From Naegleria gruberi (Eukaryota): a stretch of 64,000 nt of DNA. Shown here piece by piece: positions 63,569 to 64,000 of this stretch. The stretch is taken from the NCBI GenBank assembly GCA_000004985.1, contig GG738888.1; one strand, 5' to 3'. The notes under the pieces are model-generated. The model had not been told where the DNA came from and did no database searches. It saw nothing but the letters and a program-made list of their open reading frames with translations. Each line of letters opens with the position of its first letter. Within the stretch, counting starts at the first letter, position 1. The translations under genes and the position numbers were made by a program.

Positions 63569-64000
63569 GGGTTTGGGTTTGGGTTTGGGTTTGGGTTTGG
63601 GTTTGGGTTTGGGTTTGGGTTTGGGTTTGGGTTTGGGTTTGGGTTTGGGTTTGGGTTTGGGTTTGGGTTTGGGTTTGGGTTTGGGTTTGGGTTTGGGTTT
63701 GGGTTTGGGTTTGGGTTTGGGTTTGGGTTTGGGTTTGGGTTTGGGTTTGGGTTTGGGTTTGGGTTTGGGTTTGGGTTTGGGTTTGGGTTTGGGTTTGGGT
63801 TTGGGTTTGGGTTTGGGTTTGGGTTTGGGTTTGGGTTTGGGTTTGGGTTTGGGTTTGGGTTTGGGTTTGGGTTTGGGTTTGGGTTGGGTTTGGGTTTGGG
63901 TTTGGGTTTGGGTTTGGGTTTGGGTTTGGGTTTGGGTTTGGGTTTGGGTCCGGGTTTGGGTTTGGGTTTGGGTTTGGGTTTGGGTTTGGGTTTGGGTTTG
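63569..64000 (+). repeat. Telomere-like hexamer array (GGGTTT)n, ~72 units, extending to the window edge
   Basis: Near-perfect gggttt repeats from 63569 to the last base. Two imperfections (gggttggg at ~63885, gggtccggg at ~63950). The G-rich strand reads 5'->3' toward the end of the + strand, as expected for a right-arm telomere. Confidence 0.75.

Follow-up and report, generated by a model that had tools for sequence, protein, structure and literature searches.

The 64,000-bp stretch of Naegleria gruberi DNA analyzed here (hereafter the window) ends in a long run of GGGTTT hexamers. This raises the question of whether the run marks a chromosome end, and how far the sequence on its inner side can be regarded as a subtelomere. 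A sequence-only reading had described a telomere-like array at the window end and had taken the region of 36–64 kb as subtelomeric. We find that the array is in all likelihood a genuine chromosome-end telomere of N. gruberi, represented by its inner part at the end of a Sanger-era scaffold.

The proposal of TTTGGG as the N. gruberi telomere repeat dates from 2013. In a search for TnAmGo-type minisatellites across 143 genome assemblies, Fulneckova et al. (Genome Biol Evol 5:468, PMC3622300) named TTTGGG as the candidate N. gruberi telomere on the basis of array position and orientation in the genome assembly. The assignment was made in silico, and its authors call for experiments. The literature searched contained neither later work on Naegleria telomeres or telomerase nor an experimental confirmation of TTTGGG (Bal31, TRAP). 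The identification of the array at 63569–64000 is correct but ordinary, and the 2013 assignment very probably drew on this scaffold end among others. The suggestion that the T3G3 unit could help to place the organism turned out well, in that TTTGGG is the candidate published for this species (PMC3622300).

Anatomy and polarity of the terminal array

Direct reading of positions 62400–64000 gave an array of 432 bp that is uninterrupted up to the final base of the window. Tandem Repeats Finder placed it at 63568–64000 with a period of 6, 72.3 copies, 98% matches, and a score of 845. When split unit by unit, the array consists of 70 perfect GGGTTT units and two variant units, which are GGGTT at 63881–63885 and GGGTCC at 63946–63951. 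These numbers bear out the earlier description of more than 430 bp of near-perfect hexamers at the window end. Units 1–52 on the proximal side are all perfect, and both variants fall within the distal third. The G-rich strand is the plus strand and runs 5' to 3' toward the 3' end of the window, i.e., outward, which is the telomeric polarity that had been ascribed to it. On the proximal side, the array is flanked by unique sequence, and at the junction GGTCTGACCTTAGTCGT is directly followed by GGGTTT without a zone of degenerate repeats. On the distal side, the array reaches the window end. The T/G-rich short unit, the run of at least three G, the near-perfect head-to-tail arrangement, and the outward G-strand are the characters of telomerase-type (TnAmGo class) repeats. 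The designation as telomere-like is therefore sound, as unit type, polarity, and end-of-sequence position are as expected, and the 2013 survey (PMC3622300) assigns TTTGGG by like criteria.

Base composition predicts about 10 isolated GGGTTT and about 10 AAACCC hexamers per strand. The sequence-only reading had noted that internal arrays of the same hexamer would point to a plain microsatellite; we looked for such arrays in the other 63.5 kb of the window, and found seven GGGTTT and five AAACCC, all isolated, and no second tandem copy of either. Hence, the array is real, unique in the window, and far above chance. Tandem runs of GGGGTT or AACCCC are absent from the window, and GGGGTT units are absent from the array. 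Hexamers of the TTAGGG type occur in the window as two TTAGGG and three CCCTAA, all isolated. Neither TERT nor TER was found in the 64-kb window.

In old arrays, degeneracy is typically proximal, while the declining quality of Sanger reads would give distal variants. The location of both variants in the distal third, together with the perfect proximal units, suggests that they are sequencing errors near a read end and not signs of decay in an old internal microsatellite. The coordinates of the array and of the features on its inner side are collected in Table 1.

Table 1. Features at and inside the terminal array, with window coordinates and the evidence for each
Feature	Position	Strand	Evidence and remarks
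Full-length non-LTR (LINE) retrotransposon, 4,845 bp	35802–40646	+	Pfam domains and target-site duplication
Two diverged direct repeats, ~520 bp each, ~75% identical	40863–42141	+	Self-comparison; between the LINE and the first gap
REJ/EGF gene, proximal copy, ORF intact over 1,152 codons	46635–50095	+	Self-comparison; 5' part lost in the 43112–46634 gap
REJ/EGF-domain gene, distal copy, ORF of 1,438 codons	54004–58320	+	ORF, Pfam, and transmembrane prediction
Scaffold gap, 2,121 N	60786–62906		Sole tie between the telomeric contig and the remaining scaffold
Unique subtelomeric stretch, non-coding, 25.7% GC, directly inside the array	62907–63568		Reading, self-comparison, and composition
(GGGTTT)n telomeric array (alias TTTGGG)	63569–64000	+	Direct reading and Tandem Repeats Finder

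Species of origin and gene content

The window has a GC content of 34% and carries many long ORFs in the standard code, the longest having 1,783 codons. Among 11 ORFs checked for their stop codons, ten end with TAA and one with TAG. The standard genetic code is in use, and the ciliate code, in which TAA and TAG are sense codons, is not. With these stop codons and an array free of G4T2 units, the earlier statement that the organism is not a ciliate and that TAA terminates its genes was upheld.

The ORF at 2667–3965 on the plus strand is an exact full-length match to N. gruberi EFC41037.1 (NAEGRDRAFT_51411), and so is the ORF at 24917–25519 on the minus strand to N. gruberi EFC41120.1 (NAEGRDRAFT_71159). 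Both proteins are located on an N. gruberi scaffold of 351,708 bp. Because of these two exact protein matches, the window DNA is that of N. gruberi NEG-M. The Pfam domains in the window include those of an ABC transporter, a myosin II-type heavy chain, Ras, Sel1, F-box, tenascin-like EGF/fn3, and REJ proteins, and the endonuclease and reverse transcriptase of a LINE. The myosin ORF has its top database match, at 74% identity, in Naegleria lovaniensis. This match and the two exact N. gruberi matches led us to reject a dictyostelid or other amoebozoan source, to which the gene content had seemed to point. The myosin gene (10941–17106, plus strand) is found in two ORFs, 10941–11696 and 11758–17106. 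As these match consecutive parts of the Myosin_head profile, the gene should have one short intron of roughly 60–100 nt.

A 983-codon ORF at 26714–29662 on the plus strand has no Pfam match and is almost wholly made of nested tandem repeats. The repeats form Gly-rich, His-rich, and Lys/Glu-rich blocks with periods of 12–102 nt, among which a 42-nt unit occurs 16 times at 28066–28761. The N-terminus is hydrophobic and signal-peptide-like. By its sequence, the product resembles a low-complexity protein that is secreted or displayed at the cell surface.

The region inside the array and its scaffolding

The AT-rich stretch of 661 bp directly inside the array resembles the neighboring N. gruberi intergenic DNA in composition. 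It has no significant similarity to the rest of the window, to the N. lovaniensis loci, or to metagenomic subtelomeres. Together with the array, this stretch makes up a telomeric contig of 1,094 bp (62907–64000). The window has three N gaps, i.e., 43112–46634 (3,523 N), 51911–51960, and the gap adjoining the telomeric contig, all of which are located in the last 21 kb. As the telomeric contig is joined to the remaining scaffold only across the gap of 2,121 N, the subtelomeric status of the 36–64-kb region depends on the scaffolding.

On either side of the LINE stands a copy of ATATTTAGTAATACTGGTGAAG (35780–35801 and 40647–40668), a perfect target-site duplication of 22 bp, and the insertion site lies 54 bp 3' of the stop codon of an EGF/fn3 gene. 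ORF1 (35816–37171) has a weak RRM match, as in L1-type ORF1 proteins. ORF2 occurs in two overlapping frames, with the endonuclease at 37428–38834 and the reverse transcriptase at 38794–40554. This split of the frame could reflect frameshifting, mutation, or an error in sequencing. The LINE has no obvious poly(A) tail at its 3' end.

The REJ/EGF gene is present in two copies. The distal copy has a single C-terminal transmembrane segment (residues 1359–1396), and its product is a putative type I surface protein as judged from these features. Over the 1,152 residues of the proximal copy, 1,141 are identical between the two copies and 11 differ. At the DNA level, 46635–50287 and 54860–58493 share 98.9% identity over 3,653 nt. 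The flanks share 83% identity over 433 nt, and the copy-to-copy offset changes from 8,225 to 8,583 bp. The whole forms a direct duplication of about 8.2 kb (46635–51706 versus 54860–60289) with scaffold gaps on both sides. Either a genuine tandem duplication or the serial placement of two haplotypes by the assembler could account for it. In the spacer after the proximal copy, a perfect 17-bp tandem repeat, AATATTATTAATAAATT, occurs in 4.1 copies at 51009–51077. Self-comparison gave no alignment of this stretch to the flank of the distal copy.

The sequence-only reading had listed a LINE insertion, repeat families, assembly gaps, and a tandemly duplicated surface-protein gene as typical subtelomere content. 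All of these are present, in the form of the LINE with its target-site duplication, the repeats of ~520 bp, the three N gaps, and the duplicated REJ/EGF membrane-protein gene.

Comparison with Naegleria lovaniensis

The myosin orthologue of N. lovaniensis is located at 24–30 kb of the 689-kb contig PYSW02000016.1. The order of the ABC-transporter and myosin II genes is common to window positions 5192–17107 and the N. lovaniensis locus (2409–16105 of the sequence taken from PYSW02000016.1 as locus L001). In N. lovaniensis, this block lies 24–40 kb from the contig end in the same orientation, and the contig end is on the array side of myosin. The shared gene order stops immediately distal to myosin. 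Beyond this point, N. lovaniensis has genes for a subtilase, a GH31 protein, and a short-chain dehydrogenase, and N. gruberi has genes for DUF4476, F-box, EGF/fibrinogen-like, Sel1, and EGF/fn3 proteins. No translated similarity was found between 17.1–63.5 kb of the window and two N. lovaniensis stretches covering 3,961–40,259 of PYSW02000016.1, i.e., starting after the first 3,960 bases. The synteny break is compatible with a location at a chromosome end that has been conserved while the subtelomere changed rapidly.

Because the shared gene order breaks there, a lineage-specific, non-syntenic zone may begin at ~17 kb, just past myosin. The claim that 36–64 kb is subtelomeric stands for its content, with qualifications as to its bounds: the LINE starts at 35802, slightly before 36 kb, the lineage-specific zone possibly begins near 17 kb, and the join to the array rests on the gap of 2,121 N. 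The first 8 kb of PYSW02000016.1 hold no tandem repeat, and the contig begins in unique sequence. This contig end is an uncapped assembly end and is uninformative on the telomere repeat of N. lovaniensis.

GGGTTT arrays in metagenomic contigs

As a control, metagenomes were scanned for contigs with at least eight perfect GGGTTT units. Among the 120 contigs listed, 41 have a terminal outward array, ten have a terminal inward array, and 69 have an internal array. The contigs with internal or inward arrays are mostly GC-rich, with a median GC of ~0.52, and those with outward arrays are AT-rich, with a median of 0.36. The longest perfect runs of the internal arrays measure 48–114 bp among the 120 contigs listed. 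Some samples gave more than one contig with an internal or inward array (e.g., Ga0115007 and Ga0209302 among loci L004–L123). In the organisms having such arrays, GGGTTT is an ordinary microsatellite. As 69 internal arrays and ten arrays of the wrong polarity occur among the 120 contigs listed, the GGGTTT motif alone is not diagnostic of a telomere, and it is position and polarity that carry the argument. None of the 120 listed matches is an N. gruberi-like contig.

One AT-rich environmental eukaryote, represented by the assembly JAESGV01, behaves uniformly. Its (GGGTTT)n arrays are terminal and outward in 21 of 21 contigs among the matches listed (L006, L014, L015, L021, L026, L040–L043, L052, L059, L061, L065, L071, L081, L086, L089, L090, L094, L102, and L109). 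The organism uses the standard code, with in-frame TAA and TAG only at ORF edges. At least one eukaryote that is not a ciliate thus uses TTTGGG strictly as a terminal repeat. A few junctions have G4T2 or other variant units (L042 and L102). The JAESGV01 subtelomeres have repeat families in common and a SETD1-like gene, and in L043 a long ORF adjoining the array resembles a retrotransposon polyprotein (putative). Comparison of JAESGV01 with the window gave no nucleotide or translated similarity.

Several JAESGV01 genes are of the DYW type, their PPR products including a DYW deaminase domain. Two heteroloboseans, N. gruberi and Acrasis kona, are reported to have genes of this type. It is conceivable, but in our view rather doubtful, that TTTGGG is a clade-level heterolobosean telomere type and that the JAESGV01 organism is a second heterolobosean lineage having it. 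Were this true, it would point to one A-to-T substitution in the template of the telomerase RNA, early in the history of heteroloboseans.

Interpretation and alternative explanations

We favor the reading of the array as an N. gruberi telomere because its anatomy and outward G-strand polarity are of the telomeric kind, because the window has no other tandem copy while isolated hexamers stay at chance level, and because the species is the one for which the survey (PMC3622300) names TTTGGG as the candidate. The same reading is supported by the N. lovaniensis orthologous block, which lies near a contig end and whose synteny ends past myosin, by the distal location of the variants next to 52 perfect proximal units, and by the strictly terminal TTTGGG in the 21 of 21 JAESGV01 contigs listed. 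Against it stand the 1,094-bp contig joined via a gap of 2,121 N, the motif that is not diagnostic by itself, the N. lovaniensis contig end, which has no repeat and so gives no confirmation from a second species, and the in silico nature of the published assignment. What could be read directly comprises the repeat unit with its purity, polarity, and end-of-sequence position, as well as the species and the content of the subtelomere. That telomerase makes the array and that the array is capped is inferred from general telomere biology, as is the true telomere length; TTTGGG presumably stands at all chromosome ends.

The telomere may nevertheless be real while its surroundings are misplaced. In this alternative, which we regard as improbable, the 1.1-kb contig was mis-scaffolded, or the duplication represents two haplotypes in tandem, so that 36–64 kb would belong to another place than this end or would span less than it seems to. 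The three N gaps in the last 21 kb, the sole link of the telomeric contig across 2,121 N, and the 98.9%-identical 8.2-kb duplication bracketed by gaps speak for it, the last being the kind of arrangement that can arise from collapsed or split haplotypes in whole-genome shotgun scaffolds. Scaffold joins, however, are normally supported by several mate pairs. The distal region has subtelomere-like features of independent kinds, namely the LINE, the diverged repeats, the low coding density, and the loss of synteny versus N. lovaniensis, and the orthologous block in N. lovaniensis likewise lies near a contig end. As for the haplotypes, a true duplication fits at least as well with 11 of 1,152 residues being different, the flanks being 83% identical, and the offset shifting from 8,225 to 8,583 bp.

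Two further explanations concern the array itself. It would be very improbable that the array is an interstitial telomere-like microsatellite cut by the window or by a contig break that the repeat caused. Pure arrays of at least eight units are internal in 69 of the 120 metagenomic contigs listed, and assemblers often break contigs at simple repeats; yet the array seen here, at 432 bp, is far longer than the internal ones from metagenomes, in which the longest perfect runs measure 48–114 bp, and most of those internal arrays reside in GC-rich genomes (median GC of 0.52 versus 0.34 here). The telomeric polarity and the lack of a second tandem copy in 63.5 kb argue against an interstitial origin as well, and the survey (PMC3622300) places the repeat terminally in the N. 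gruberi genome. The other explanation, effectively refuted, is that contaminant DNA or the macronuclear telomere of a ciliate, of the Paramecium type (G4T2/G3T3), was misassembled into the scaffold. Paramecium telomeres do contain G3T3 units, but the array has no GGGGTT, the genes follow the standard code with TAA stops, the 661-bp flank is AT-rich in the manner of the neighboring N. gruberi intergenic DNA, and the protein matches are exact. The long standard-code ORFs with TAA stops and the array without G4T2 units rule out a ciliate origin.

If the array is a telomere, general telomere biology predicts that telomerase lengthens the G-rich strand at its 3' end, with a short RNA template, complementary to TTTGGG, being copied over and over. 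This template would then contain a permutation of CCCAAA. The duplex array and its G-overhang would bind capping proteins, with the result that the end is not treated as a break and replicative shortening is offset. The 28 kb inside the array would be a typical plastic subtelomere with a recent LINE insertion, diverged repeats, and a near-identical duplicated membrane-protein gene.

The outcome marks one N. gruberi scaffold end as a likely chromosome end, in agreement with the published in silico motif, and matters little beyond annotation. It does concern Heterolobosea, a lineage with otherwise unstudied telomere biology. The TTTGGG motif can anchor a chromosome-scale reassembly of Naegleria and guide the search for the telomerase RNA by a CCCAAA permutation in its template. 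The subtelomere shows a LINE and a duplicated surface-protein gene gathering beside a chromosome end. The metagenome control adds a methodological caution, as GGGTTT is often an internal microsatellite elsewhere.

Comparison with known telomere systems

Compared with the N. gruberi candidate of 2013, the present array is alike in species, unit, and kind of evidence (terminal position and orientation), and there is no substantive difference. Added beyond that survey is local detail on how long the array is and which variants it has, on its junction with the flanking sequence, on the link of its contig across a gap, on the LINE and its target-site duplication, on the gene duplication, and on the synteny break versus N. 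lovaniensis.

The JAESGV01 arrays share with the N. gruberi array the GGGTTT unit, the terminal outward placement, the AT-rich context, and the standard code. They differ in that some of their junctions have G4T2 or variant units, and their sequences have no similarity to the window.

Paramecium macronuclear telomeres are mixed TTGGGG/TTTGGG repeats, i.e., they contain both G4T2 and G3T3 units. The G3T3 hexamer and the G-strand polarity are common to them and the N. gruberi array. In contrast to Paramecium, the N. gruberi array has no G4T2 units and belongs to a genome with the standard code. Moreover, its chromosome is conventional and gene-dense, with a LINE in the subtelomere, whereas the macronuclear molecules of Paramecium are fragmented.

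Telomeres of the TTAGGG type resemble the N. gruberi array in having a T/G-rich unit with a G3 block, a pure tandem arrangement, and an outward G-strand. They are also alike in having an AT-rich subtelomere with repeats and a transposon. The difference lies in the unit, where the A of TTAGGG is replaced by T in N. gruberi (TTTGGG).
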